Source: Longimicrobiales bacterium
GTDB lineage: Bacteria; Gemmatimonadota; Gemmatimonadetes; Longimicrobiales; Gaopeijiaceae
Direction of reading: 5' to 3'
Length of the DNA: 64,000 bases
NCBI GenBank assembly: GCA_965248195.1
Contig: CBDFIQ010000002.1
Span: 3,104,001-3,168,000 of the forward strand
Part shown: positions 16,278-33,262 of the stretch, in pieces
How positions within the stretch are numbered: the first letter of the stretch is position 1
Layout: every line of letters starts with the position of its first letter
Translations under genes and position numbers: made by a program
The notes under the pieces: model-generated
The model's input: the letters and a program-made list of their open reading frames with translations, nothing else
What the model was told of the DNA's origin: nothing
The model's database searches: none

Positions 16278-17216
16278 TCAGTCGTCTTCCCAGCTAGACC
16301 GGTCGGAGAGATGGAGATCCGCGGCCTCGACTCTGAGGGTGAGGTCTTGGGACACCTCCAGAGCCCTGGCGGGCGCTTCGTACCCGACCTTCCAGATCAA
16401 CAGTTCATAGGAGCCTCCAGCCACTGCCAGGATCGCGCGCCCGGACTCGTCGGTAGAGGCTCGATACGCCCCGAGGCTCACTTCGGCGTTCGGGACGGGG
16501 ACGCTCGACTCCCGCTCGACTACCTCGACGGTGAGCCGGTGCTCGGGTGGTTTGGTGGTCGCGAAACCGAACCGGGCAGATGCTTCTCGGTGGGGGAGCT
16601 CCAGATCCGCTTCCGAAAAAGCTACCGACCACGAAACCACCCCCTCCCCTACCGGAGCAACCAACTCCACTTCGGCCCAGTATAGGCCGTCCGACCCGGG
16701 CCAGAACGCATCCCCGAACTCCGCGGTCCCGAGTCTGTCGCCCAATCCGTCGCGGACCTCGATTCTCCGGCCCTGCAGATCGCACTCCTCCGCGCATTTG
16801 GCCCCTATCTTGACCATGAAGGGCTCACCCATCACCACGGGTGAAGGCACGTCCCAGATCGCGAGGCTGGTTCTGTGGGCTTCGGTCCTGAAGGGCACGG
16901 CAAGAGAAGTCCCGGCATGCGCGGGGGGCTCACCCGCCTGAGGTTCACTCGCCTGAGGTCGAAACCGCACACTCCACTCGTGATCGCCGACTTCCGGAGG
17001 AGCCCTGAGCATGAACTCGCCCGTCTCGTTGATCCCTTGGTCGAACGAAACGAGTTCGCTCGTCATGACCGGACCCTCGGGAGTCGTCACCGCGACTTCC
17101 GTGCCGCGCAGGTCACACCCGGAGGGACACGTGACCCGGACCTGGAAGGTCAGCTCGGCACCGGCCGCCACCTCCGACGGAAACCACCGACTGACTTCGA
17201 GGTGGGGCTCATGCAC
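16278..17216 (-). CDS. Hypothetical protein: two Ig-like repeats with C-x3-CDL motif plus carboxypeptidase-regulatory-like domain
   Basis: VTCPSGCDLRG and AKCAEECDLQG repeats; C-terminal PVPNAEV...TDESG...GSYEL---KVGY. Confidence 0.65.
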   Translation of the reverse strand: MHEPHLEVSRWFPSEVAAGAELTFQVRVTCPSGCDLRGTEVAVTTPEGPVMTSELVSFDQGINETGEFMLRAPPEVGDHEWSVRFRPQASEPQAGEPPAHAGTSLAVPFRTEAHRTSLAIWDVPSPVVMGEPFMVKIGAKCAEECDLQGRRIEVRDGLGDRLGTAEFGDAFWPGSDGLYWAEVELVAPVGEGVVSWSVAFSEADLELPHREASARFGFATTKPPEHRLTVEVVERESSVPVPNAEVSLGAYRASTDESGRAILAVAGGSYELLIWKVGYEAPARALEVSQDLTLRVEAADLHLSDRSSWEDD

Positions 17217-17233
17217 CGAATGCCTACCCGGTT

Positions 17234-18910
17234 TCAGCCCTCCCGCCCGTTCCGAGCCGCATCCATGCCCGCAATGCGCCCATAGACGAATGCCCTCCCC
17301 AGCCCATGCTGGCCGAAGCCGCCCGAGGACTCACCAGCGACGTAGAGGCCCGGAATGACCTCGCCCTGCGTATCCAGCACTTGAGCCCTCGTATTCATAC
17401 GGATACCCGCGTAGGTGTCGTGTACGCAGGGGGTGTCCCACGCCGCGTAGAACGGCGGGCGCTGTATCTTGTATAGAGGCCTCGGCTTCTGGAAATCTTC
17501 ATCGACCCCCGAGTCGACGAAGGAGTTGTACCTCTCGACGGTCTCCCGCAGGACCTCACCGGGCATGGGACGCCACTGGTATTTGCTCTTGATGCTGGAA
17601 GCCAGTTGCTCGAGGGTATCGGCTGTGAAGAAGTAGCCGTCCGGGTCCACGTAGGGCGGCTTGACATTCCACCCCTCCCGCTCGACGCCGTCGGCGTCGA
17701 AGATGGCCCAGATCGGTCCTCCTCCGTTCAATTTGTTGGGATCGCCGGTCCACTGCATCGCTGCGAAGAAATACTGGTAGTCCCTGATCCCGGCAGTCTC
17801 GTCATAGAACCTCCGACCGGTCTCCTTGACGAGAATCAAATTCTGCCAGTCCCTCACCCGCAGGCCGGTGGCCTTCTCGCGAAAAAAGTTCGGAGCATCG
17901 GGGGTAAAGGCGAGGCCGTGGTAATTGGACCTCGTCGCCAGCCGTCCCTTGGAGAGCTGGCCATCCGATTCGTTCGTTTGGTTGGCGGTACCCCACAGCG
18001 ATGCCCCGATCGCCATGGCAGCCAGCTCTCCGTCGGCATTCTGTGGCGTCCAGCCGTCGCCGTGTACCTGGTATTCCTCGGTAAGCCTTGGATCGAACAT
18101 TCTGCGAAAGTTGACGTTGCTCGAATGCCCGCCCGTCGCAAAGATCACGCCATTCCTTGCCTCGATCGCGACGGTCCGGCCCGTGGGCTCGTACCACTCG
18201 TCGACCTCCATGGCCGTGACGCCGAGGACCCTACCCGAAGTGGGGCCCTCTCGCACGAAGCTCGTCATTCTGTGGCTCAGCAGGATTTCCACCCCCTTCG
18301 CGCGCGCACTCCGCTCCAGCGGCCTCATCAGGCCGGAGCCCCTCTGCGTGGGCACGATGACCTCACTTTCGATCGGCCACTGACGGGGGGAAGGTCGTCT
18401 CGGGACGGAATCAAGACGGCTCGCCGACCCCAACGGCAGCCAATCCACTCCGTTCTCGGTCAGGAAGTCGAAGGTCGCGATGCAATTGTCCACATAGGTA
18501 CGAACGATCTCCCGATCGTTGTAGCGGTTCATCGGATGGTCCTGCAACGTCCAGTCGTAGAAAACGGCCTCGGGCGAATCCTCGATACCTGCCTCCTTCT
18601 GAAGCCAAGTCCCGCCGCCGAGGTAGCAGGCTCCACCGCTCAGGATCGCTCGTCCACCGATGTCGAAGTTCTGTTCTACCAGCATGACAGACACGCCCTG
18701 ATCCCGCGCGGCGAGAGCCGCAGCGAACCCGCCCGCCCCTGCCCCGATGACGACCACGTCTGCCTGTCGGTCCCACTCTATCGCTTGCGCCTGCCCCGTA
18801 CGTGTCAAAAACGGGCTCTCACCGACACCGACAGCCGCCGCGGTACCCACCACCGCACTGTTCTTGACGAATTCTCTCCTGCTCTGAGCTTTCGGTGTCT
18901 TCTCACCCAT
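17234..18910 (-). CDS. Tat-exported FAD-dependent oxidoreductase (flavocytochrome c / 3-ketosteroid dehydrogenase-like)
   Basis: SRREFVK Tat motif; DVVVIGAGAGG; ATGG; IPGLYVAGE; GRIAG. Confidence 0.88.
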   Translation of the reverse strand: MGEKTPKAQSRREFVKNSAVVGTAAAVGVGESPFLTRTGQAQAIEWDRQADVVVIGAGAGGFAAALAARDQGVSVMLVEQNFDIGGRAILSGGACYLGGGTWLQKEAGIEDSPEAVFYDWTLQDHPMNRYNDREIVRTYVDNCIATFDFLTENGVDWLPLGSASRLDSVPRRPSPRQWPIESEVIVPTQRGSGLMRPLERSARAKGVEILLSHRMTSFVREGPTSGRVLGVTAMEVDEWYEPTGRTVAIEARNGVIFATGGHSSNVNFRRMFDPRLTEEYQVHGDGWTPQNADGELAAMAIGASLWGTANQTNESDGQLSKGRLATRSNYHGLAFTPDAPNFFREKATGLRVRDWQNLILVKETGRRFYDETAGIRDYQYFFAAMQWTGDPNKLNGGGPIWAIFDADGVEREGWNVKPPYVDPDGYFFTADTLEQLASSIKSKYQWRPMPGEVLRETVERYNSFVDSGVDEDFQKPRPLYKIQRPPFYAAWDTPCVHDTYAGIRMNTRAQVLDTQGEVIPGLYVAGESSGGFGQHGLGRAFVYGRIAGMDAARNGREG

Positions 18911-19143: not shown

Positions 19144-20514
19144 CTACCCCCCACCTTGTTCCTCCTCCAGTCGAGCGATCCGCTGCTCCCGCTGGGCCTT
19201 CAGGTATTCGAAGTCCTCGTCGCTCAGATAGGTGGTGCCGATCCACATGTGCGACATCTCATCGGCGCTGCGCCTGCCGAAGATCACCCACTGGTCCGGA
19301 TCAGGGTTCACCGGATTGGCGGCCGTGTTGTCATACCAGGCCGTGAGAACGAGCACCGTGCCCTTGGGCAGCAACGGCATCACATGGTCTTCAAAGAGGT
19401 AGTTGATGTGCCATTCGCCGTTCCAGTTCACTTTGCACAGAATCTCCAGGTGACCATCGGGGAAGATCGCTTCCATCGACTGCGATGCTCCGCGCAGGTG
19501 CATGTGGCCCCGGCAGCTGTGGAGTCGGGTATTTTCTTGCAGCACGTGGAACCCCTGCGTCACCGCACGCCCGTGGGGCGGGAGGACCACCTGCTGCACC
19601 GTCAGGCCGCGGCCGCGGCCCTCGGCGCTTCCGAGCTGCCGCTGCGAGCTCCAGGAGACATCACCTTCCGTCGCGAAACGCGGGTCCTCACCTTCCGGGT
19701 AGAACCATAGTCCGACTTCGACGACGTCGTCATCGATCGCCACACCGTTGGGGTAGTAGTGGATGTTGAAGCTGAGGCTGTTTCCCGGCGCGATCAGCCG
19801 CCCTGTATTCTCTGGGAAAATATCGAAGGGCTTGCCGATCCCATAGTTGGAAAAGCCGCCCCGCCCATCCTCCGTAATGAGGCTGCTGTTCGCGTGATGG
19901 ACGACGCCCTTGCCCAACATGGAAGGTTTGGTCTCGTTCGCCATGACCCACCGAGGGCCGTCGAGTCCCTCCACCTCCACCTGATGAGGCCACCAATTGT
20001 CCAGGCCGCTCGCCGGCACGTCGAATGGGCTCGACTTGATGATCAGATCCGGCGGGCCGAACTGCGTTGCCAGCCGCCACTCGGCGCCCGACGGGATCTC
20101 GGGGACGGGCGGAGCGTGCGTCATGTCTCCCTGCGGCGCTCCGGCGTCGACCCACTGGACGACCCTCTGGATTTCCTCTTCCGAGAGCGAGACGTCGTTC
20201 TTGAACTCCTGAATCCCCACGTCCTGGTCGACGTGCCACGGCGGCATCTGGCGCGTCTCGACTTTGACCTTGATCAATGGGGCGTAAAGCCTGGCCGTCT
20301 CGTAGTCGAGGAGCGACATGGGTCCGATGCCTTCCGGCTGATGACACCCCACGCACGACTCGTATAAGATAGGCGCGACGTCCTCGGCCCACGTGGCGTC
20401 CTGTCCGAACGCGGGCTGCGGCTGCAGCACGGCCATCAGCAAGAAGATCGGCGCGGCGATCCAGAGGCCATGCCACGCCCGAGGGCGGTGGCTCTGTTTT
20501 GTCATGCGGTCCAT
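19144..20514 (-). CDS. Cytochrome c-fused copper type II (PHM/DBH-like) monooxygenase, copy 1
   Basis: Signal peptide; CVGCH...MPPW; VVHHA, NIHYY, GHMHLRG, DEM. Confidence 0.85.
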   Translation of the reverse strand: MDRMTKQSHRPRAWHGLWIAAPIFLLMAVLQPQPAFGQDATWAEDVAPILYESCVGCHQPEGIGPMSLLDYETARLYAPLIKVKVETRQMPPWHVDQDVGIQEFKNDVSLSEEEIQRVVQWVDAGAPQGDMTHAPPVPEIPSGAEWRLATQFGPPDLIIKSSPFDVPASGLDNWWPHQVEVEGLDGPRWVMANETKPSMLGKGVVHHANSSLITEDGRGGFSNYGIGKPFDIFPENTGRLIAPGNSLSFNIHYYPNGVAIDDDVVEVGLWFYPEGEDPRFATEGDVSWSSQRQLGSAEGRGRGLTVQQVVLPPHGRAVTQGFHVLQENTRLHSCRGHMHLRGASQSMEAIFPDGHLEILCKVNWNGEWHINYLFEDHVMPLLPKGTVLVLTAWYDNTAANPVNPDPDQWVIFGRRSADEMSHMWIGTTYLSDEDFEYLKAQREQRIARLEEEQGGG

Positions 20515-20533
20515 GATGTGTTTCTCCTTTTTA

Positions 20534-21436
20534 TTATGGGGTGACGGTAACCTTCACGTAGTTGTTCGTATAGCAGCAATGCTGCACCATCGCAGAAAGC
20601 GTCTGGAGCCCGGTGACCCGGAGCATGTACTCCCCCGGCTCGCTGAAGCTGGCGGTCGTCGTCACCTGGCCCCCTTCCGCCGGAACCTCGAACCGTCGCT
20701 CCTCAAAGTCGACGGCGACAGGCCCCTGGTGCTCGAACCAGAAAAGGAGGAAGTCACGCTCCGTGGGGGCGAACGGCTCGAGCCACACGCTCAACGGCAA
20801 CGGCTCCCCCACCGCCACGGTGAGCGGACCCAGGGTTACGCCGGATCGCCCTCTCCCCCTCGGGCCCGACGGGTCGAACGCGAGCACCGGTGCGACCGGC
20901 GCACTCGTGCTGGCTTCGAGATTTTCGATGCGACTGCCTTCTACCGTGAGGCGCCCCGGGACCCGGATCGTCTTGCCCTTGTAACGCAAGGTCCAGACGA
21001 CATCCTCAGTCCCGAAATCCGCCGGTACCTCGACGGTGAAGACGGCCTGGTGTCGATAATGTCTGCTTTGTCCGTCCTGCCCCCGGGGCGGCGCCGTCAT
21101 GAAGTACGTCGGCTGCATCCCGTTGTATTCGGCCGGCTCGAGGAAGTTGTCGGGCCCGATCGGGATCTGGAACACCTCCTCGAAGTTCATATTGAAGTAA
21201 CTGAAAGAGAGGCTGTACGTGCCATCCGGATTCGGGTACCAACCCTCGAACAGGGGAATGAGTGGCTGATCCCGGGGCCTGACGGTCACCAGGTTGTATT
21301 GGTAAGGTGTGAGGGCCCACCATTCGTCGAATTGACGATCCTGCCCTCCGAACTGGTCCACCTGGCCCACGAGAGGAGCCCATGGCACCATCGTGAGTGC
21401 GGTCACCGCCACAACGACGTTACGCGCCCTCTTCAT
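20534..21436 (-). CDS. Exported hypothetical protein with C-terminal PKD/Ig-like domain and HCCYTN motif, copy 1
   Basis: P-FEGWYPNPDGT...FSYFN-N...IPIGPDNFLEP...QPT-F; FSEPGEYMLR; paralog of 48156-49037. Confidence 0.8.
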   Translation of the reverse strand: MKRARNVVVAVTALTMVPWAPLVGQVDQFGGQDRQFDEWWALTPYQYNLVTVRPRDQPLIPLFEGWYPNPDGTYSLSFSYFNMNFEEVFQIPIGPDNFLEPAEYNGMQPTYFMTAPPRGQDGQSRHYRHQAVFTVEVPADFGTEDVVWTLRYKGKTIRVPGRLTVEGSRIENLEASTSAPVAPVLAFDPSGPRGRGRSGVTLGPLTVAVGEPLPLSVWLEPFAPTERDFLLFWFEHQGPVAVDFEERRFEVPAEGGQVTTTASFSEPGEYMLRVTGLQTLSAMVQHCCYTNNYVKVTVTP

Positions 21437-21825: not shown

Positions 21826-24090
21826 ATGAACTACCGCAAATTGACGCCAGTTCCTTCATACCAGCAATTATCGAGAAGGGCGCCGGTATCAGCGAGGAGA
21901 CATCAAACCCCCGGTCCGCTCCGGACGGCCTGCCTCTGCATTGTCTCTGCGCTCTCGCTGAGTGTGGTGAGCCTATGGGTGACCCCGATCTCCGCCTTCG
22001 GCCAGGAGCCTTCGGGGTCCTACACCAACGCCCAGGCCGAAGCCGGGGCGACTGTATATGAGTCCACCTGCTCGGTGTGTCACCTGACCGATTTCCAGGG
22101 CTCGTTCGAGGCCCCCGAGTTGGCGGGCCCGAACTTCCGAAACACGTGGGGTGGCCGGCGGGTGGGCGACCTACTCGTGCTGATCGAGGCCACCATGCCG
22201 CCCCAAGCCGCCGGGTCTCTGAGCGCTGAGCAGGTCGCCTCGGTCGTGGCCTATATCCTCCGAGCGAACGAGGTTCAGGCGGGCGGAACCGAGTTGAGCC
22301 TCGCTTCCGCCGTAACGGTGATCCCGGGTGCGGAGCCGGCGGCCGTCACGACCGCGGCGGGTATCCCTCCGATTCCCGGTCGGGTCGGGACGACCTTTTC
22401 GCCGGAGGCGGTGCAGGCTCCGCCTGAATTTCTCGGCGCGATATCTGAAACTCCTGCTGGTATCACGGAGACCTATCGAGCGCCGGAGGGATACACACCG
22501 GTGTCGAACGCCGAATTGGTCTCGCCTCCCGATGGAGACTGGCTGCACTGGCGAAATTCCCCCGGATCGACCGGTTTCAGCCCGCTGTCGCAGATCAATA
22601 CGGAGAACGTTCACCGGCTGCAGCTGGCCTGGGTCTGGGCGTTGCCCGATGGAAGCCGTTACCGCACCGCGCCTCTCGAGAGATCCGGCATTCTCTTCCT
22701 GACGACAGCCGGCGGCTCCGTGCAGGCGCTAGACGCTACCGACGGCACCCTCCTCTGGGAGCACCGCAGAAAGGACGCCCGCATCGGTCAACGGGTGCAA
22801 AGCGTCGCTCTCTGGGAGGACCTCGTTCTTCTGTCCACTCCCGACGGAGCGATGGTAGCCTTGGACGCTCCGACCGGAGTCGTTCGCTGGGAGACCCCGC
22901 GGATGGGGTTCGGTAACACCGCGGGACCCATCGTGGCTGACGGGAAAGTGATCAACGGGGCCAACGGCTGCGGCAGATTCATCGAACAAAAGTGTTTTGT
23001 CAGCGCCCACGACGTCCGTAGTGGCGAGTTTCTTTGGCAGACGGAGGTGATCGCTCGGCCCGGCGAGCCGGGCGGGGACACCTGGGGCGAGCTCCCGTTC
23101 GAGATGCGGGCGGGGGCGGACATGTGGAATGGCGTCAGCTGGGATCCCGATTTGGGCTTGGTCTACATCGGCACCGCGCAGGCGAAGCCGTGGGTGGCCG
23201 TCAGCCGAGGGCTCACCACCGCCGACTCGACGCTCTACGCGAACTCGACCCTGGCCCTCGATGTGGAGACCGGACGCATCGTGTGGTACCGGCAGCACGT
23301 TCCGGGCGAGTCCTTGGACATGGACGAGGGATTCGAGCAGGTCCTCGCGGACATCGACGGCGTGCCCGCGCTCCTCACCATCGGCAAACATGGTGTGCTC
23401 TGGAAGCTCGACAGGCGAGACGGGACCTTCCTGGGTATGAAGGAAACGGTGTTCCAGAACATTCTCTCGATTGATCCCGAGACAGGCGCGGTGCAGTACC
23501 GGGAGGACATCGCGAACGCCAGGGTGGGTGACTGGGTGTCGGTGTGCCCCTCCACGGCTGGGGGGAAGAACTGGCAGGCGACCAGTTACTCTCCCGATGC
23601 GGGCCTCATCGTCATCCCGCTAAGCCAAAGCTGCATGGATATGACCGCACGCGAAGTCGTCCTGGAGGCGGGTGGCGGTGGCAGTGGGGGGGAGCGCGCG
23701 TGGAAAGAGATGCCCGGTACCCGCGGGATGTTCGGAAAGCTCGCGGCGTTCGATGTTGCGACGATGGAGGAGGTGTGGAGTGTCGAACAGAGAGCCCCCT
23801 TCCTCATGGGAGCCTTGACGACCGCGGGTGGACTCGCGTTCGCCGGATCCTATGACAGGTGGTTCAAGGCGTATGACATCCAAACGGGTGACGTGCTCTG
23901 GCAGACCCGGCTTGGCACGTCGGTCCAAGGTTTCTCGATGACCTTCGAGGTGGACGGCGTGCAGTACCTTGCGATGACCGCAGCGCGCAACGGTGGGAGT
24001 CCCTGGCGGGTAGCGACCTTCCTGGCGACGGAGTTCGTGAGTCGTCCTCAGGCAAATGCCCTTTACGTGTTCCGGCTAGGCCAACCATAG
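21826..24090 (+). CDS. Cytochrome c + PQQ-dependent dehydrogenase-type beta-propeller
   Basis: CSVCH...MPP; DWL-WR, FSPL-QI---NV--L-LAW, repeated A-D--TG---W; LDMD; GGKNW; DG-QY. Confidence 0.88.
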
Positions 24091-24147: not shown

Positions 24148-25398
24148 ATGAGTTCATTGTTTCGGTGTTCCAGGCTCCTGACGCTGGCTGCCGTCCTTGG
24201 GGTCGTCTCGACCACGGGGTGTGCACAGCAGGAGACGGCGTCAGGAAGCGAGGCCAGCGCCATGAGCAGCATGCAGGAAGGCTCGCTGGTGCATGATGGG
24301 CAGGAGCTATTCGGCCATTACCACCAGCCTAGTCCGTTCCCGCAGCCTCTGCCGGACGACGCGCACTCACACGACGGCTGGACTTGGGGGTCCATGGGGG
24401 CCGTCTTTGCCGAGAGCCCGGACAAGATCTGGCTCGCCATGCGGGGAGAGCTCCCGCTCCCGGAGGGGACAGATCCGTGGACACCCTACGCCCTCCTGAA
24501 CCCCTCCCGGGGAAACGCCTCGCCCAACGACGACAACGGAATTCGCGGGTATGAGCGGCGGTATCTGCACGTCATGATCGCCGTGAATTCCGAGGGAGAG
24601 CTGGTTGAATATTGGCCGCAGCATGACCAGCTCTTCGACGTACGGGGCGGGCGCGGACCCCACAAGATCAAGATGAGCCCCTACGACGACGAGAAGCATA
24701 TCTGGGTCGTCGATGACAACCTCCACCAGATCCACAAGTTCACCTACGACGGGGAGTTGGTGCTCACGCATGGAGAGCAGCTCGTACCCGGACGGGGGCC
24801 GAACAACTTCTCGCGCCCGACGGACATCGCGTGGCTACCGGACGGCACCTACTTCATCAGTGACGGCTACGTAGGAACCCGCGTAGCGAAGTTCGACGCC
24901 AACGACAACTTCATCATGGACTGGGGCCAGGCCCCGGCCGATCCCGCCAACCCGGGTCCCAACGAATTCAACACTGTCCACGCTATCACGATCAGCGCGG
25001 ATCGGTTGATCTACGTGTCGGATCGGGCTCACGCCCGGATCCAGGTGTTTGACGAAAACGGCGACTTCCAGTTCCTGTTCCCGACTGGCCAGCGAGGCGA
25101 GTCTCTCCCGTACGCGATCGAGATCCTTCGGGATCCGTCTGGAGAGGAGTTCCTTTGGGTCGCGGACGGCAGCTCGAACCGAATGCTGAAGTTCGATCTA
25201 GACGGGAATTACCTCTATGGCTGGGGCACCCCTGGCGACGATTACGGGCACTTCAACGGCCCGCACTCGATCACGACCGACCAGGACGGCAACCTTTACA
25301 TTTCGGAGGTGTTCGCCGGGCGTGTACAAAAGTTCGTCCCAAGGTCCGGTGCCGACCCTGCCAAGATCGCGGGACAGCAGCTGCGGGAGTGGAACTGA
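24148..25398 (+). CDS. PAL-like NHL-repeat beta-propeller lipoprotein
   Basis: Lipobox TTGC; GPH, RPTD, SDGY, VHAI, SDR---RIQ, GPHSI. Confidence 0.85.
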   Translation: MSSLFRCSRLLTLAAVLGVVSTTGCAQQETASGSEASAMSSMQEGSLVHDGQELFGHYHQPSPFPQPLPDDAHSHDGWTWGSMGAVFAESPDKIWLAMRGELPLPEGTDPWTPYALLNPSRGNASPNDDNGIRGYERRYLHVMIAVNSEGELVEYWPQHDQLFDVRGGRGPHKIKMSPYDDEKHIWVVDDNLHQIHKFTYDGELVLTHGEQLVPGRGPNNFSRPTDIAWLPDGTYFISDGYVGTRVAKFDANDNFIMDWGQAPADPANPGPNEFNTVHAITISADRLIYVSDRAHARIQVFDENGDFQFLFPTGQRGESLPYAIEILRDPSGEEFLWVADGSSNRMLKFDLDGNYLYGWGTPGDDYGHFNGPHSITTDQDGNLYISEVFAGRVQKFVPRSGADPAKIAGQQLREWN

Positions 25399-27809: not shown

Positions 27810-29144
27810 CTACACCCCGCTTAGCGCGTCGAGCGGCAGTCGACCGGTCGCGTCCCCCAGCGACTCGATGGGCACACCCATCTTGTCGAGCAGGCTCAGA
27901 TGCAGGTTCGCGAGCGGCGTGTCTTCGGCGTACTGCGTGTGACGCCCGCCCGTGCCCGCCCCGCCACCGGCGAGGAGGATCGGCAGGTTCCCGGAGTAAT
28001 GGGAGTTGCTGTCGGCCATGCCGGCGCCGTAAACGATCATCGAGTGATCGAGCAGCGTCCCGTCGCCATCGGGCGTCGAGCTCAGTCGCGTGATGAACTC
28101 GGAAAACAGCTCCGCGTGGTACCGGTTGATCTTCCTCAGCTTCTCGAGCTTGACCGGATCCCTCTGATGGTGGGAGATGGGATGGTGGGCGTCTGGCACG
28201 CCGATCTCGGCGTAGGTGCGGCCCGTGATCTCGCGTCCCATCATGAACGTCGCCACGCGAGTGAGATCCGTTTCGTACGCGAGGGCCAGGAGATCGAACA
28301 TCAGCCTCGTGTGCTCGCCGAAGGTGCTCGGGATCCCCGCCGGCTGATCGATCACCGGCAGCTCACGCTCGCTCTGCGCTTCGGCCATCTGGATTCGCCG
28401 CTCGATGTCGCGTACCGCCTCGAGGTACTGGTCCAGCTTGGCTTGGTCGCTCGACCCGAGCTGCCGGGACAGAGCACGCGCTCGCTCGGTGACGGAATCG
28501 AGCAAGCTCGCGTCCTTCCCCAGCCGCGCCTTCCGGACCGCCGGATCGGTGCTGCCGCTGTCGCCGAAGAGCCGCTCGAATACCGCACGTGGGTTGTTCT
28601 CCATCGGGAGCGGCGTCGTATCATTCGCCCAGGAGATCGTGTTGGTGTACGCGCAGCTGAAGCCCTCGTCACACGAGCCGGCAAAGTCACGCCCGTCGAT
28701 GGCGAGCTCGAGCGTGGCAAGCTGCGTCTCGCGACCGAGCACACGTCCCGCGATCTGATCCATCGAGATGCCGGCCCGAAGATTCGACCCATTGTCCCGC
28801 TGTGAAGCAACGCCGGTCAGGAAGCGCGTGGAGGCGCGCGCATGCGGCCCCTCGGCGTCCACGCCGTGCATGCCCGAGAGCACCTGTACTTGGTTGCGGA
28901 ACGGCTCGAGCGGCTGGAGGATCGTCGGGAAGTCGAAGCCGCTGCCGTCGGTGGTCGGGGTCCAGTGATCCATCATCATGCCATTCGGGACGTAAACGAT
29001 CCCCAGTCGACGCACGGGGTTCGCGGCCGTGTCGCGGAGTGCCGTAAAGGCCGGCACCATCCCGTCGAGGAGCGGCAACGCGAGCGACGCGCCGAGCCCA
29101 CGGAGCATCGTGCGGCGAGGGATTACCTTCTTGGTAATGATCAT
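27810..29144 (-). CDS. DUF1552 domain protein (Tat-like N-terminus)
   Basis: RRT-LRG-G--LALP-LD-M, YVPNG, SMDQ, ISW, FERLFG, D-TRV-T, HH-ISHH, H----LP; ATGA overlap with the upstream gene. Confidence 0.9.
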   Translation of the reverse strand: MIITKKVIPRRTMLRGLGASLALPLLDGMVPAFTALRDTAANPVRRLGIVYVPNGMMMDHWTPTTDGSGFDFPTILQPLEPFRNQVQVLSGMHGVDAEGPHARASTRFLTGVASQRDNGSNLRAGISMDQIAGRVLGRETQLATLELAIDGRDFAGSCDEGFSCAYTNTISWANDTTPLPMENNPRAVFERLFGDSGSTDPAVRKARLGKDASLLDSVTERARALSRQLGSSDQAKLDQYLEAVRDIERRIQMAEAQSERELPVIDQPAGIPSTFGEHTRLMFDLLALAYETDLTRVATFMMGREITGRTYAEIGVPDAHHPISHHQRDPVKLEKLRKINRYHAELFSEFITRLSSTPDGDGTLLDHSMIVYGAGMADSNSHYSGNLPILLAGGGAGTGGRHTQYAEDTPLANLHLSLLDKMGVPIESLGDATGRLPLDALSGV

Positions 29145-31618
29145 GACTCCGACCTCCGCTTGCGGAACGGGGTGCTTTGCACGATGCCCACAATGATAGA
29201 CGACCAGCGGTAATTCTCCAAAGATGCTGTGCGAGTGATGTCCCGTACAGTCGGCCGGTCGTAGTGTTCGGGCGCCCGGCCGATTGCATACGCCAGCAGC
29301 TTCTCAGTCACGGTGCCGCTGAACTGTTCCCGGCGCTCGAGGAGCAGCGTCCGGAGGCCCTGTGGCCCATAAAACTGGGTCCCGTTGGGCAACTGACCCG
29401 ACGCGTCGATCGCCAGATTGGCCTCCCCGGTGCTTCGCCACCTGCCAATCGCGTCGTAGTTCTCGAGCGCCAACCCCAGGGGATCCATCGGTGCGTGGCA
29501 GGCCGAGCAGACGGGGTCCTCTCGGTGGCGTAGCATCCGATCGCGAACCGTGGCCGGCTGACCGTCCTCACCCCGGTCCGGAAGATCCGGCACGTCGGCC
29601 GGTGGCGGCGGTGGCGGCGTCCCGAGGATGTTCGTCAGCACCCACTTGCCGCGGAGTACCGGTGAGGTCCGATTCGCATAGGAGGTGACGGTGAGCAGAC
29701 TTCCCTGTCCCAAGATGCCACCTCGTCGCTCGGCAAGGTCACCATCGAGCGGCACCCGGCGGAAGTGGCTGCCGTAGACGCCGGGAATGCCGTAGTGCTC
29801 CGCGAGCCGCTCATTGGCGAACGTGTAGTCGGCGCCGAGCAGATCGAGCACGCTTCGGTCGTCGCGAATCAAGCTTTCGACGAAGAGCTCGGTCTCCTGC
29901 CGGAACGCGTCGCGCAGATTTTCGTCGAACTCGGGAAACGTGACCGCGTCGGGCACCACGCTGCGCAGGTTCCGCAGGTAGAGCCATTGGCCGGCGAAGT
30001 TCTGCACCAGCGCCTTCGAGCGGGAGTCGGCCAGCATGCGTCGGGTCTGCTGCTCGAGCACCTCCGGATCCTGGAGCATACCGCGCTCGGCAGCTTCGAG
30101 TAGCTCGGCGTCCGGGATGCTGCTCCACAGAAAAAACGAGAGCCGCGAGGCGAGCTCGAGATTGCTCAAAGCGTAGACGGTCCCCGGTGCGATACCGGTC
30201 GGGTCGCGCTCTACGCGGAACAGGAAATCGGGCGAGATGAGCAGTCGCTCCAGCGCGAGCTGGATGCCGGCATCGAAGCTGCCGTCGCTCCGTCCCGCGT
30301 GGTAGAATTCCATGAGCGTAGCGAGATCGTGCGCCTCGACCGGTCGCCGGTACGCGTGGCGCGCCAGCGACGACAGAATCTCGCGGGCGCACACTTCCTC
30401 GTCCGAAGATGCGTCGCTCGCCGGTCGGCAGGTGAACACCGCCCGGCGGCTCGGCGTGTCACCCGGGCCACCGCTCCCATACGGTCCGGTGATCGCCACG
30501 TGCTCAACGGCCGCGTTCCCGTCGCGCATCTCGTTCACCGCCGCCGCGAACACGCTCTGGCGAGGCTGAAGCACGCCTTCGGGCTCGGTAAACCTCCGGA
30601 CGAACGAGACGCCGACGAGGCGCGGCCCCGCCTTGGCCGTAAAGCGTATCCGCAGATCGGCGTCGGCGAAGAGCATGTACTCTTCCCAGGCCGGATCGCC
30701 GAACTGGTTGCCTCCGTAGCTCGCGGGCGCCTGCAGGACGTCCGGCTCCTCGCCACCGAAGGTGAACGTACGGACCAACTCGCCGTCGAGGCGGACCTCC
30801 AGCTCGTGGCGCGACCCTAGGCCGCGCACGTAGTTCACATAGTTCCGATGAAGTCCGATCGCGAGGTCGTATTCGCCGTCGAGGGGGAAGTAGTGGCGGA
30901 TTCCAATCCCTCCGCGCGAGCCAAACGGGAGGTCGTCCCCCATTCGGTCGTTCTGTACGAGCAGAATCGGCACCGCGTAGGTCTCGCCTACCGGTCCCAG
31001 CGGAGCTTCGCCGACCGCCAGTCGTGCCGTCTTCCGCGCCGCCGATAAGTACCGCTCCATCAAGGCGGGTGAGACCGTCAACACGTCGGCCATGTTGTCG
31101 AAACCGTGCTCGTCGATGTCGTCCGCGGGCAACAGCGCCTCCACGTCGACATCGAGCGCCAACAGATCACGAACGGCGTTGGCGTATTCGGCGCGATTGA
31201 GGCGATGGAACGCCTCGGTCCGGCCAGGATTCGGATTGGCCGCCGCGAACTGGTCGATCTCGGACTCGAGCCATGCGGTGAGCACGGCGTAGGTCTCGTC
31301 CGCCGGACGCGACCGGCCCACCGGCGGCATCCGCCGTGAGCGAAGCTGCAGGAGGACCCTTTCAGGAATCCCGGCGTGTTCACCCACCCGTGCAAGATCG
31401 AGGCCCTCGAAGGAGAGGTCGCCCCTGCGGCTTCGGTCGTTATGGCAGCTGACGCAGTACTCGCCGAGGGTCGCCTGGAGAAGTTCGGCTTCGGAGGCCG
31501 GCTGCGCTTGGGCGCTGACAGCCAGTGGGGCGGAAAAGAGTACCACGGTCACGAGGACCACCGTCCCGAGCACCGCTGTTCTGAACACGGACTCCAGCGA
31601 CAGGTTTCGTGACATCAT
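29141..31618 (-). CDS. DUF1592-family (PSCyt/DUF1587/1595/1592/1588/1585) c-type cytochrome protein
   Basis: CVSCH, RLNR-EY-N--RDL, ELASRLSFFLWSSIPD, FAGQWL, TSPV-RG-W, CSACH--MDP-G. Confidence 0.92.
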   Translation of the reverse strand: MMSRNLSLESVFRTAVLGTVVLVTVVLFSAPLAVSAQAQPASEAELLQATLGEYCVSCHNDRSRRGDLSFEGLDLARVGEHAGIPERVLLQLRSRRMPPVGRSRPADETYAVLTAWLESEIDQFAAANPNPGRTEAFHRLNRAEYANAVRDLLALDVDVEALLPADDIDEHGFDNMADVLTVSPALMERYLSAARKTARLAVGEAPLGPVGETYAVPILLVQNDRMGDDLPFGSRGGIGIRHYFPLDGEYDLAIGLHRNYVNYVRGLGSRHELEVRLDGELVRTFTFGGEEPDVLQAPASYGGNQFGDPAWEEYMLFADADLRIRFTAKAGPRLVGVSFVRRFTEPEGVLQPRQSVFAAAVNEMRDGNAAVEHVAITGPYGSGGPGDTPSRRAVFTCRPASDASSDEEVCAREILSSLARHAYRRPVEAHDLATLMEFYHAGRSDGSFDAGIQLALERLLISPDFLFRVERDPTGIAPGTVYALSNLELASRLSFFLWSSIPDAELLEAAERGMLQDPEVLEQQTRRMLADSRSKALVQNFAGQWLYLRNLRSVVPDAVTFPEFDENLRDAFRQETELFVESLIRDDRSVLDLLGADYTFANERLAEHYGIPGVYGSHFRRVPLDGDLAERRGGILGQGSLLTVTSYANRTSPVLRGKWVLTNILGTPPPPPPADVPDLPDRGEDGQPATVRDRMLRHREDPVCSACHAPMDPLGLALENYDAIGRWRSTGEANLAIDASGQLPNGTQFYGPQGLRTLLLERREQFSGTVTEKLLAYAIGRAPEHYDRPTVRDITRTASLENYRWSSIIVGIVQSTPFRKRRSES

Positions 31619-31780
31619 CTGTCAGTCCCCCACTGAATCCTAGGCTAACCCTAGTGTGACTATCCCGGCGTCCCGGGGCATCTCGGTGGATCGCGAACTT
31701 CTGGGACAAACACCGGGCCTAGATTGGCCCGCCCTGACTGGGGTGTCAATGTTGGACCGAATGCCGTAGCATGGATCAAC

Positions 31781-33262
31781 ATGTGTAAGAGACTTCGTGC
31801 CACGGTACCGCTCATCGCCATGCTGGCCGCCGTTCTCGCCTGGCCGGTCGCAGCCCACTCGCAGTCTGCGCCTGCGATCATCGAGGCGTTGAAAGCGGGT
31901 GACCTCGAGACGGCACGCACGCTGGTCGCCGTGGGAGCCGACGTCAATGCACCCCAGGGCGATGGCGCCACGGCGCTCCACTGGGCAGCGCACCGGAACC
32001 ATCTCGGCGCGGCAAGGTTGCTCATCGAGGCCGGCGCGGACGTCAACGCGGCCAACGGGCTCGGCGCCACCCCCCTGTGGCTGGCAGCGATCAACGGCAG
32101 CGCGCCGATGGTCGAGCTGCTGCTCGAGGCGGGTGGCAACCCGAACGCATCGCTCAAGATGGGCGAAACGCCGCTGATGACCGCAGCTCGGTCGGGCGAC
32201 CTTGAGACGGTCGAGCGGCTTCTAGAGCATGGCGCGGACATCAACGCGGCCGAGCACGAACGCGGGCAGACCGCTCTGATGTGGGCTGTCGCCCAGCAGC
32301 ACGTTGATGTCGCACACCTGCTGATCGAGAATGACGCAGACTTGCATGCCCGCACGAAGGTCTGGTACCAGCTGGAGAACACGGCGGGCAACACCAACAC
32401 GAGCGGCAATTTCCGGATGGCGCACGGCGGCTCGACACCACTGCTTTTCGCTGCGCGTAACGGTGACGTCGAGACCGTCCGAGTGCTCGTGGAGGCCGGC
32501 GCCGACGTCAACGACACCGCGGCCTCCGGAGCCCGCGCGCTCGTCATCGCAGCGCATAGCGGGCACGGGCCGCTCGGGATCTACTTGCTCGAGCAGGGCG
32601 CCGATCCGAACGCCGCCGGGGCGGGGTATACAGCGCTTCACGCTGCAGTCCTTCGAAGCCAAGTCGAGTTGGTCGAGGCGCTCCTCGACCACGGCGCCGT
32701 TGCGAACGCAGTCGTCGAGCACGGGACGAACGGCCGGCGGTTCAGCGCGGACTACAGCATCCGCCATCAGCTGATCGGCACGAACGCGTTTTGGCTGGCC
32801 GCGAAATACGGCGAGCTCGAGATCCTCGGCACGCTCGCCGAGCATGGAGCCGATCCCTTCGTCGTACCCGAAGGGGGCATGTCGGCGCTCCAGGCGGCGA
32901 TCGGCATGCCGGGCTCATCCTTGGAGAGCCGACGTGACCGCATCGGGAATTCGGCTCCGGATCCGGACGACGAAGAGCGACGGACCCTCGAGCTGGCGCG
33001 CATCGTCATCGACCTCGGCGTCGACGTCAACGCGGCCGACCAGAGGGGCAACACCCCACTGCACGACGCGGTGCGCAAGGATTTCGCATCCGTCGTCGAG
33101 TTGCTGGTAGCACGCGGCGCCGACGTCAACGCGGTGAACGAGCGCGACCAGACGCCGTTGGTGTTGGCCGAAACTCCTCAGACCATCCCCGGCACGAACG
33201 GGCTGAGGGGCACCCGCCCCGAGGTCGCGGAACTGCTGCGGAGCTTGGGTGCGAACGACTAG
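31781..33262 (+). CDS. Exported ankyrin repeat protein
   Basis: Many G-T-LH/L-AA...GADVN repeats; signal peptide. Confidence 0.92.
   Translation: MCKRLRATVPLIAMLAAVLAWPVAAHSQSAPAIIEALKAGDLETARTLVAVGADVNAPQGDGATALHWAAHRNHLGAARLLIEAGADVNAANGLGATPLWLAAINGSAPMVELLLEAGGNPNASLKMGETPLMTAARSGDLETVERLLEHGADINAAEHERGQTALMWAVAQQHVDVAHLLIENDADLHARTKVWYQLENTAGNTNTSGNFRMAHGGSTPLLFAARNGDVETVRVLVEAGADVNDTAASGARALVIAAHSGHGPLGIYLLEQGADPNAAGAGYTALHAAVLRSQVELVEALLDHGAVANAVVEHGTNGRRFSADYSIRHQLIGTNAFWLAAKYGELEILGTLAEHGADPFVVPEGGMSALQAAIGMPGSSLESRRDRIGNSAPDPDDEERRTLELARIVIDLGVDVNAADQRGNTPLHDAVRKDFASVVELLVARGADVNAVNERDQTPLVLAETPQTIPGTNGLRGTRPEVAELLRSLGAND

Follow-up and report, generated by a model that had tools for sequence, protein, structure and literature searches.

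Can a copper monooxygenase of the PHM/DBH kind draw its electrons from a heme of its own instead of from ascorbate, and does it do its work alone? The question is raised by a locus in a stretch of 64,000 nucleotides from a Longimicrobiales genome (contig CBDFIQ010000002.1); the whole stretch is called the window, and all window coordinates refer to its positions. A sequence-only reading, made by a model, had placed there a single feature, 19144-21436, described as a self-contained monooxygenase resembling PHM (peptidylglycine alpha-hydroxylating monooxygenase) with a fused heme. The feature is in fact two open reading frames in different frames, here called alpha and beta, and the pair is a real, new variant of the enzyme kind formed by PHM and DBH (dopamine beta-hydroxylase), which in animals produce amidated hormones and noradrenaline. 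Our main reading, to which we give a probability of roughly 0.6, is that alpha and beta form a periplasmic, catabolic copper monooxygenase of the PHM/DBH superfamily, which is fed by its heme and hydroxylates a small substrate anchored by its carboxylate. The features of the two genes are:

19144..20514, minus strand: alpha subunit (P0001), 456 amino acids, with a signal peptide, a c-type cytochrome domain at about 38-130 and a PHM/DBH-fold core at about 155-435
20534..21436, minus strand: probable beta subunit, 300 amino acids, with a signal peptide and two Ig-like beta-sandwiches, of no known family
20341..20355, minus strand: heme c attachment motif C54-x-x-C57-H58 of alpha (CVGCH, 54-58)
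20245..20247, minus strand: M90 of MPPW (90-93), presumed distal heme ligand, a role suggested by its invariance
19894..19899, minus strand: H206-H207, CuH ligands (PHM H107/H108)
19759..19761, minus strand: H252 (IHY), CuH ligand (PHM H172)
19498..19512, minus strand: R335-x-H337-x-H339, the probable carboxylate-anchoring arginine (PHM R240) and CuM ligands (PHM H242/H244)
19249..19257, minus strand: M420 (DEM), CuM ligand (PHM M314), with H422 at the position of PHM N316
20573..20578, minus strand: adjacent Cys287-Cys288 of beta, in a loop touching alpha in the predicted complex

A single open reading frame over 19144-21436 is ruled out by the two frames and by the stop codons and Shine-Dalgarno site between them; position 21436 is the start of the overlooked 300-amino-acid gene. 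The stop of beta is followed by the Shine-Dalgarno site AAGGAG, and the ATG of alpha lies 19 bases past the end of beta. For beta, a start giving 328 amino acids was dropped in favor of the ATG giving 300, which is preceded by a GGAGG site, because of the lengths of the homologues and the position of the ribosome-binding site.

The motifs CVGCH, MPPW, HH, IHY, HMH and DEM, picked out from the letters by the sequence-only reading, all lie within the open reading frame of alpha, and they are conserved. Their residues are invariant in 116 close homologues, save H206 (115/116), so that chance can be set aside. Among the full-length distant representatives, CxxCH and M90 are each found in 82 of 82, and all ten heme and copper ligands in 80; of 164 non-redundant homologues, 158 keep the six copper ligands, and contig ends clip two of the six that do not. 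A family profile built from P0001 and 55 of 150 distant representatives matches DBH (E 2e-10) and PHM (E 3e-8) with the ligands in register: H206, H207 and H252 fall on PHM H107, H108 and H172, and H337, H339 and M420 on H242, H244 and M314, where the PHM numbers are counted from this alignment. The set of CuH and CuM ligands is complete, as had been claimed, residue for residue.

The structural comparison with PHM that had been proposed as a check gives the same answer. The AlphaFold2 model of alpha, computed from 116 sequences (P0001 and 115 of the 120 listed matches), has a pLDDT of 87.9. Foldseek returns DBH and PHM as its top matches, with E from 1e-11 to 1e-8, and VIA-align gives a Z of 19.5 for PHM 1sdw (root-mean-square deviation 3.0 over 245 residues, 14% identity) and 15.1 for DBH, the next entry being at 7.6. 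Residues 38-128 resemble the cytochrome PccH, 4rlr (Z 7.3, deviation 1.8, 72 residues aligned), a score below 8, the noise limit for this tool. The identification of alpha as a PHM/DBH-type dicopper core fused to a c-type cytochrome is supported. Sequence searches see less of it: Pfam gives only a sub-threshold cytochrome c on alpha, P0001 has no match to PF01082 or PF03712 at E 0.01, and neither NCBIfam nor Pfam names a family for the alpha core or for beta. In the PDB, a single-sequence search with alpha (phmmer) returned no chain and a close-profile search did not find PHM; the diverse profile alone reached it. The Cu2_monooxygen and Cu2_monoox_C families are matched by 9 of 51 scanned relatives, 4 of them over the cut-off, and one paralogue in the genome is over the cut-off.

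Which substrate might such a core accept? The alpha tree was built with FastTree from 164 of 226 sequences (those with at least 90% identity dropped) and rooted at its midpoint; it puts the window alpha in a clade of 67 with support 1.00. The arginine at position 335 is present in 64 of these 67 and in 0 of the 97 sequences outside, in 116 of 116 close homologues and in 5 of 56 of the diverse set. In PMC12164859, PHM R240 is described as binding the carboxylate of the substrate, and roles are described for Q170 and Q272. In the window clade, Arg335 probably anchors the carboxylate of a small substrate. The second shell differs from that of PHM: Q170, Q272, Y79, N316 and Y318 become N250, H369, W174, H422 and W424. 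We take Y79, N316 and Y318 to have roles in PHM, the last two as substrate contacts, and neither of these two positions is kept in alpha. The conserved disulfide cysteines of PHM are unmatched in the profile alignment, and alpha has no invariant cysteine besides those of CxxCH.

The pocket also varies within the organism. The genome (4.86 Mb) holds 28 alpha-like open reading frames, made up of 25 full-length ones, one gene in two pieces and one without ligands, and among the 25, position 335 holds Arg 11 times, Gln and Glu 6 times each, and Met and Tyr once each. The gene in two pieces (L083, G000:C1:615412-616889) is a paralogue split across two overlapping frames, by a frameshift or an assembly error. 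A small alpha-like clade lacks the copper ligands, HH being replaced by RG or RY, and lies near intact copies (L084:9576-10739, L100:4272-5435, L120:2224-3537, L079:7175); it is possibly a non-catalytic variant.

Is alpha self-contained? Probably not, because the upstream beta gene is a constant partner. Each of the 21 beta genes in the genome has an alpha on its own strand no more than 323 base pairs away, and a beta accompanies 22 of the 25 full-length alphas, against a random 0.02 at 1.5 kb; at L090 (G000:C1:1187699-1201033), four alpha and four beta genes stand in a tandem array on one strand. Beta adjoins alpha in 76 of 80 GTDB loci. Among 31 related genomes, it is found in 16 of the 17 with alpha and in none of the 14 without; among 150 genomes of the phylum, alpha and beta occur in the same 23, 43 of 43 beta matches adjoin an alpha according to their listed coordinates, and the sole unpaired alpha match is partial. 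The genomes compared are related to one another, and the profile used for beta came from partners in the window clade. The two are also fused, in 4 of 150 representatives, and in three different orders: beta-alpha in P0255, alpha-beta in P0256 and P0258, and alpha inserted between the two domains of beta in P0267. A fifth fusion is an 837-amino-acid frame in L106.

The model of beta (pLDDT 87.1) consists of two Ig-like sandwiches. It has no sequence match in the PDB and no fold match at Z of at least 8 (best 7.1; the N-terminal domain was not searched alone); its Foldseek matches are generic Ig-like domains, and its look-alikes in the Atlas are hypothetical or a PKD at 13%. A complex of alpha and beta is predicted with a score of 0.88, against 0.00 for the best of three controls; the mark used for this score is reached by 116 of 157 solved pairs and 2 of 215 mismatched ones, and is only rough for the alignments used here. 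The runs share at least 79% of contacts, and the partner has a pLDDT of at least 88. On alpha, the predicted interface comprises 164-176 and 253 in the CuH subdomain, and 292-320 and 404-417 in the CuM subdomain, the last stretch ending three residues short of M420; on beta, residues 284-287 touch alpha. No similar complex was found in searches of the PDB. Within this loop, Cys287 is kept in 118 of 119 sequences and Cys288 in 119 of 119, and His422 of alpha goes with the Cys-Cys pair in 110 of 132 alpha-beta pairs. Of the 20 partners without Cys-Cys, 17 go with a residue other than His, two of the three exceptions being truncated; because it follows one clade split, this covariation counts as a single event and not as repeated evidence. 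Beta is thus probably a second subunit of alpha.

From the fold, the ligands, the gene pairing, the fusions and the predicted complex, we infer the loading with metal and heme, the oxygenase activity, the path of the electrons and the class of substrate. Alpha would carry one c-type heme, held by His58 and Met90, next to the CuH and CuM ligand sets, and beta would be a dedicated subunit spanning both copper subdomains, with its Cys-Cys loop at the interface. The heme would replace ascorbate as the point of entry of the electrons, which might come from a neighbouring cytochrome c-PQQ (pyrroloquinoline quinone) enzyme, from an FAD enzyme, from both, or from the cytochrome pool. The reduced heme would then pass electrons to the coppers, CuM would activate O2, and the substrate, a small organic molecule, would be hydroxylated at a C-H bond. 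Such a role would be catabolic, some 25 paralogues with different pocket residues covering different substrates. Genes for heme c assembly and a heme-copper oxidase are present in the genome. The substitution of heme for ascorbate was already part of the sequence-only reading, and our results favor the heme as entry point, with the proviso that we infer it. The possible donors, and a third neighbour, are:

21826..24090, plus strand: exported cytochrome c-PQQ-type dehydrogenase, candidate electron donor and clade-level partner
17234..18910, minus strand: FAD_binding_2 dehydrogenase with a twin-arginine signal (by eye), second candidate donor
24148..25398, plus strand: NHL beta-propeller with a lipoprotein-type signal (by eye) and PAL-type His/Tyr/His/Arg/His, in loose association only

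The signal peptides of the locus proteins were read by eye, and the N-terminus of alpha is Sec-like. The PQQ gene had been called divergent from the oxygenase; it is divergent from beta, which lies between. The FAD gene is 233 base pairs downstream of alpha on the same strand. The NHL gene, said to follow directly, does so with respect to the PQQ gene, but lies 3.6 kb from alpha on the opposite strand.

The PQQ neighbour matches PF01011 (E 1e-61) and, over the cut-off, PF13442: a PQQ propeller and a cytochrome c domain. It resembles the PQQ dehydrogenases 9M2C, 4CVB, 4MH1 and 7WMD over the propeller, with E of 1e-85 to 1e-87, and differs from them by an extra N-terminal cytochrome c domain; it stays below the cut-offs of TIGR03075 and TIGR04528. 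Taken as one family, PQQ genes have no specific link to alpha, since they lie within 4 kb of 7 of 26 oxygenases and of 4 of 13 amidohydrolases. The picture changes for the subfamily of enzymes at least 50% identical to that of the window, a criterion that favors kin of the window organism: 20 of the 67 window-clade loci have a member within 2 kb, against 1 of 97 outside, and where flanks of 4 kb are available the counts are 18 of 51 against 0 of 59. An N-terminal CxxCH is present in 23 of the 24 long matches in these loci. The PQQ-linked copies belong to about five subclades in two phyla, with beta-alpha-PQQ operons in Pseudohongiella-type genomes, and the subfamily also stands beside the 71-72% orthologues in L131 and L146. 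In the genome itself, 3 of 6 members of the subfamily, against 4 of 37 other PQQ genes, are within 2 kb of an alpha (Fisher p 0.045). As for the FAD dehydrogenase, 3 of its 6 paralogues in the genome are within 2 kb of an alpha-beta pair (random 0.04), and it is kept in L144; it is found in 0 of 80 GTDB loci. The role of the cytochrome c-PQQ dehydrogenase as candidate donor and clade-level partner is thus partly supported, and the FAD enzyme is a candidate second donor.

Two further observations concern these genes. The window PQQ enzyme has an Asp-x-Asp at its catalytic aspartate (LDMDE), common to its subfamily, a putative lanthanide-binding signature. The FAD gene stands together with a CarboxypepD_reg-domain gene in three loci: window 16278-18910, L089 and L144.

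The NHL protein matches PAL 3FVZ with E 3e-21. Tyr654, His690, Arg706 and His786 of PAL are aligned, and His585, which falls a little beyond the aligned segment, is assigned by position. Asp787 is replaced by Ser, and NHL domains of the TRIM type reach equal or higher scores. We take His585, His690 and His786 to be the zinc ligands of PAL, and Tyr654 and Arg706 to be catalytic. A full PAL-type set is present in 23 of the 48 NHL genes of the genome, most of them far from any alpha. NHL genes lie within 4 kb of 7 of 26 oxygenases, and of 10 of 43 PQQ, 3 of 13 amidohydrolase and 4 of 8 DUF1552 genes. Of the 67 clade loci, 17 have an NHL gene within 3 kb, from mixed subfamilies. With the limit at 3.5 kb, such a gene accompanies 12 of the 20 PQQ-linked copies (in 11 loci), 10 of the 47 remaining clade members and 11 of the 97 sequences outside the clade, so that a kit of four parts is seen repeatedly, with interchangeable propellers. 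The full PAL set is present in just 3 of the 12: the window, L096 and L009. The window's NHL subfamily is found in 0 of 150 other genomes, and no NHL fusion to alpha occurs in 150 representatives. In the compact locus of monooxygenase, donor and lyase once suggested, the NHL protein keeps its PAL residues and is weakly and inconstantly linked; the neighbourhood statistics, which had been called for, link the cytochrome-fused PQQ subfamily to alpha, and show NHL genes no closer to alpha than to control families.

How should these observations be read together? A pathway like that of PAM would be a special case of the alpha-beta monooxygenase for the window clade: the oxygenase would alpha-hydroxylate an N-acyl-glycine or peptidyl-Gly, the NHL protein would cleave the carbinolamide to amide and glyoxylate, and the PQQ enzyme would oxidise a product and return electrons to the heme. 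The clade-specific arginine, the PAL-type residues of the window NHL, the proximity of NHL to PQQ-linked copies, the co-oriented clusters PQQ-FAD-alpha-beta-NHL and PQQ-alpha-beta-NHL elsewhere in the genome (L092, L096) and the amidohydrolase and M20 peptidase genes near the alpha-beta pair in the window speak for it. However, the substrate contacts have become His and Trp, full PAL sets are few beside the oxygenase and mostly remote from it, control families have NHL genes as near, and the window's NHL subfamily was not found in the other genomes, so that we hold this pathway to be unlikely. By the tests run, alpha is not a member of PAM, given the changes at N316 and Y318, the missing PHM cysteines and the inconstant PAL partner. 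A looser conjecture is that the heme c-dicopper alpha and a Cys-Cys beta that clamps or lids the copper cleft work in a closed redox loop with the cytochrome c-PQQ dehydrogenase, which would oxidise the hydroxylated product and return the electrons; we put it forward tentatively, as a reading of low probability.

There is also the possibility that alpha is not an oxygenase, but a heme-dicopper oxidase or dehydrogenase whose electrons leave copper through the heme, or a periplasmic protein handling copper or redox equivalents. A cytochrome domain can accept as well as donate, the pocket is unlike that of PHM and lacks its cysteines, and the double jelly-roll (DJR) fold also occurs in non-oxygenases such as PNGase F. 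Yet the arrangement His3 plus His2Met is exactly that of the only characterised families that have it, the positions of Q170, R240, Q272 and E313 are kept or conservatively changed, and 25 paralogues with varied pockets would suit a diversity of substrates better than metal handling; we find this improbable. Still more remote is the idea that alpha modifies a protein or cofactor, acting on beta, for instance on its Cys-Cys loop, or helping to supply the cofactor of PQQ-type proteins. It could invoke the contact of beta 284-287 with alpha, the joint occurrence of His422 and Cys-Cys, and 43 PQQ-type genes with no pqqB, pqqC or pqqE over the cut-off, but the covariation is one event in one clade split, stable fusions and a large interface suit a subunit, and one such enzyme would suffice where there are 25.

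The monooxygenase reading has its own difficulties. The identity of alpha with PHM is low, at the 14% given above, and an adjacent beta is missing in 3 of the 25 full-length paralogues of the genome and in a whole basal clade of 15 members. Distant members are often fused to AhpC/TSA-redoxin domains rather than paired with beta: 16 of 51 scanned, which were chosen mostly by length. The PQQ enzyme proposed as donor in the sequence-only reading gains from its link to the clade and loses from its absences: the subfamily is missing beside the two closest well-flanked orthologues, L100 (84%) and L120 (78%). With 7 candidates scored in each of the 23 genomes that carry alpha, 18 gave no match to it, and 6 of the 9 matches obtained are unlinked to alpha. 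The missing pqqB, pqqC and pqqE concern a genome that is 91.8% complete, and no control genome passed the cut-off either. With 43 PQQ-type genes, 46-48 NHL genes and a lone PqqD-like match, the genome has many quinoproteins and no evident source of cofactor. Distant members (P0250, P0314, P0331, P0336, P0351, P0367 and others) are fused to AhpC/TSA-redoxin, TPR, ankyrin, EF-hand, hydrolase or carbohydrate-binding domains, which suggests a thiol-based reduction in clades without beta.

Among known systems, the PHM core of PAM (1PHM, 1OPM, 1SDW) shares with alpha the fold of two subdomains, the His3 set of CuH and the His2Met set of CuM, and, within the clade, the position of R240. Alpha differs from it in being bacterial and periplasmic, with a fused c-type cytochrome, a probable beta subunit, His, Trp and Trp at N316, Y318 and Y79, no fused PAL, and about 25 paralogues per genome in the genus. 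DBH (4ZEL), the best profile match, has its copper ligands in common with alpha and, like alpha, a further domain N-terminal to the core; at the position of R240 it has a Gln, as do the alpha paralogues of the Gln class. The proposed wiring is that of lytic polysaccharide monooxygenases (LPMO) with cellobiose dehydrogenase or PQQ pyranose dehydrogenase, where an exported copper monooxygenase is fed through a cytochrome domain; there, however, the copper is mononuclear in a histidine brace, the heme is a heme b on the dehydrogenase, and the fold is unrelated. Where DBH has a DOMON and a dimerisation domain (PMC12164859), alpha has a CxxCH cytochrome, and its Ig-like partner is a protein apart.

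The family is large. It takes in 5,500 of 8,000 scored candidates, and its clusters number 19,309 at a threshold of E 0.001 and 2,989 at E 1e-30; named relatives come from Gemmatimonadota, Acidobacteriota and Gammaproteobacteria of the Pseudohongiella type, and six genomes of the genus that are at least 90% complete hold 17-31 alpha copies each. The records seen are called 'cytochrome c' or 'hypothetical', so that a large oxidative capacity goes unnoticed. No study of a bacterial PHM/DBH homologue surfaced in a full-text literature search, which covered titles and openings of abstracts; subscription journals, chemistry preprints and supplements lay outside and may list such proteins. PMC8812541 describes PHM as common among eukaryotes and PNGase F as common among bacteria.

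Should the closed redox loop hold, these bacteria would have an ascorbate-free form of PHM/DBH chemistry and, with its expansion to 20-30 copies per genome, one of their chief means of opening up dissolved organic matter. PMC12164859 presents as disputed how electrons get over an 11-angstrom gap in PHM and DBH, whether these enzymes instead adopt a closed binuclear state, and what part ascorbate plays there. A bacterial homologue with a covalent heme would offer the study of this mechanism both an optical reporter and an ascorbate-free source of electrons, and beta, with its predicted contacts to both copper subdomains, would give a handle on the open-closed motion. Expression work on the window clade should include the partner beta gene.

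Scans of the locus for promoters and terminators gave chance-level results only. Contigs from four RNA runs (two studies) overlap parts of the locus, and one of them, X5 (20227-21001), spans the beta-alpha junction; transcription and strand are not readable from them, and they are unused as evidence. Contigs in all four runs join window 27537 to 15502 with 10 letters between, which points to a related or paralogous locus with another gene order. A cluster of a DUF1552 gene, a PSD-domain cytochrome and an ankyrin gene at window 27810-33262 recurs in L084, L085, L116 and L118, and DUF1552 has 8 copies in the genome, several of them near alpha-beta pairs.

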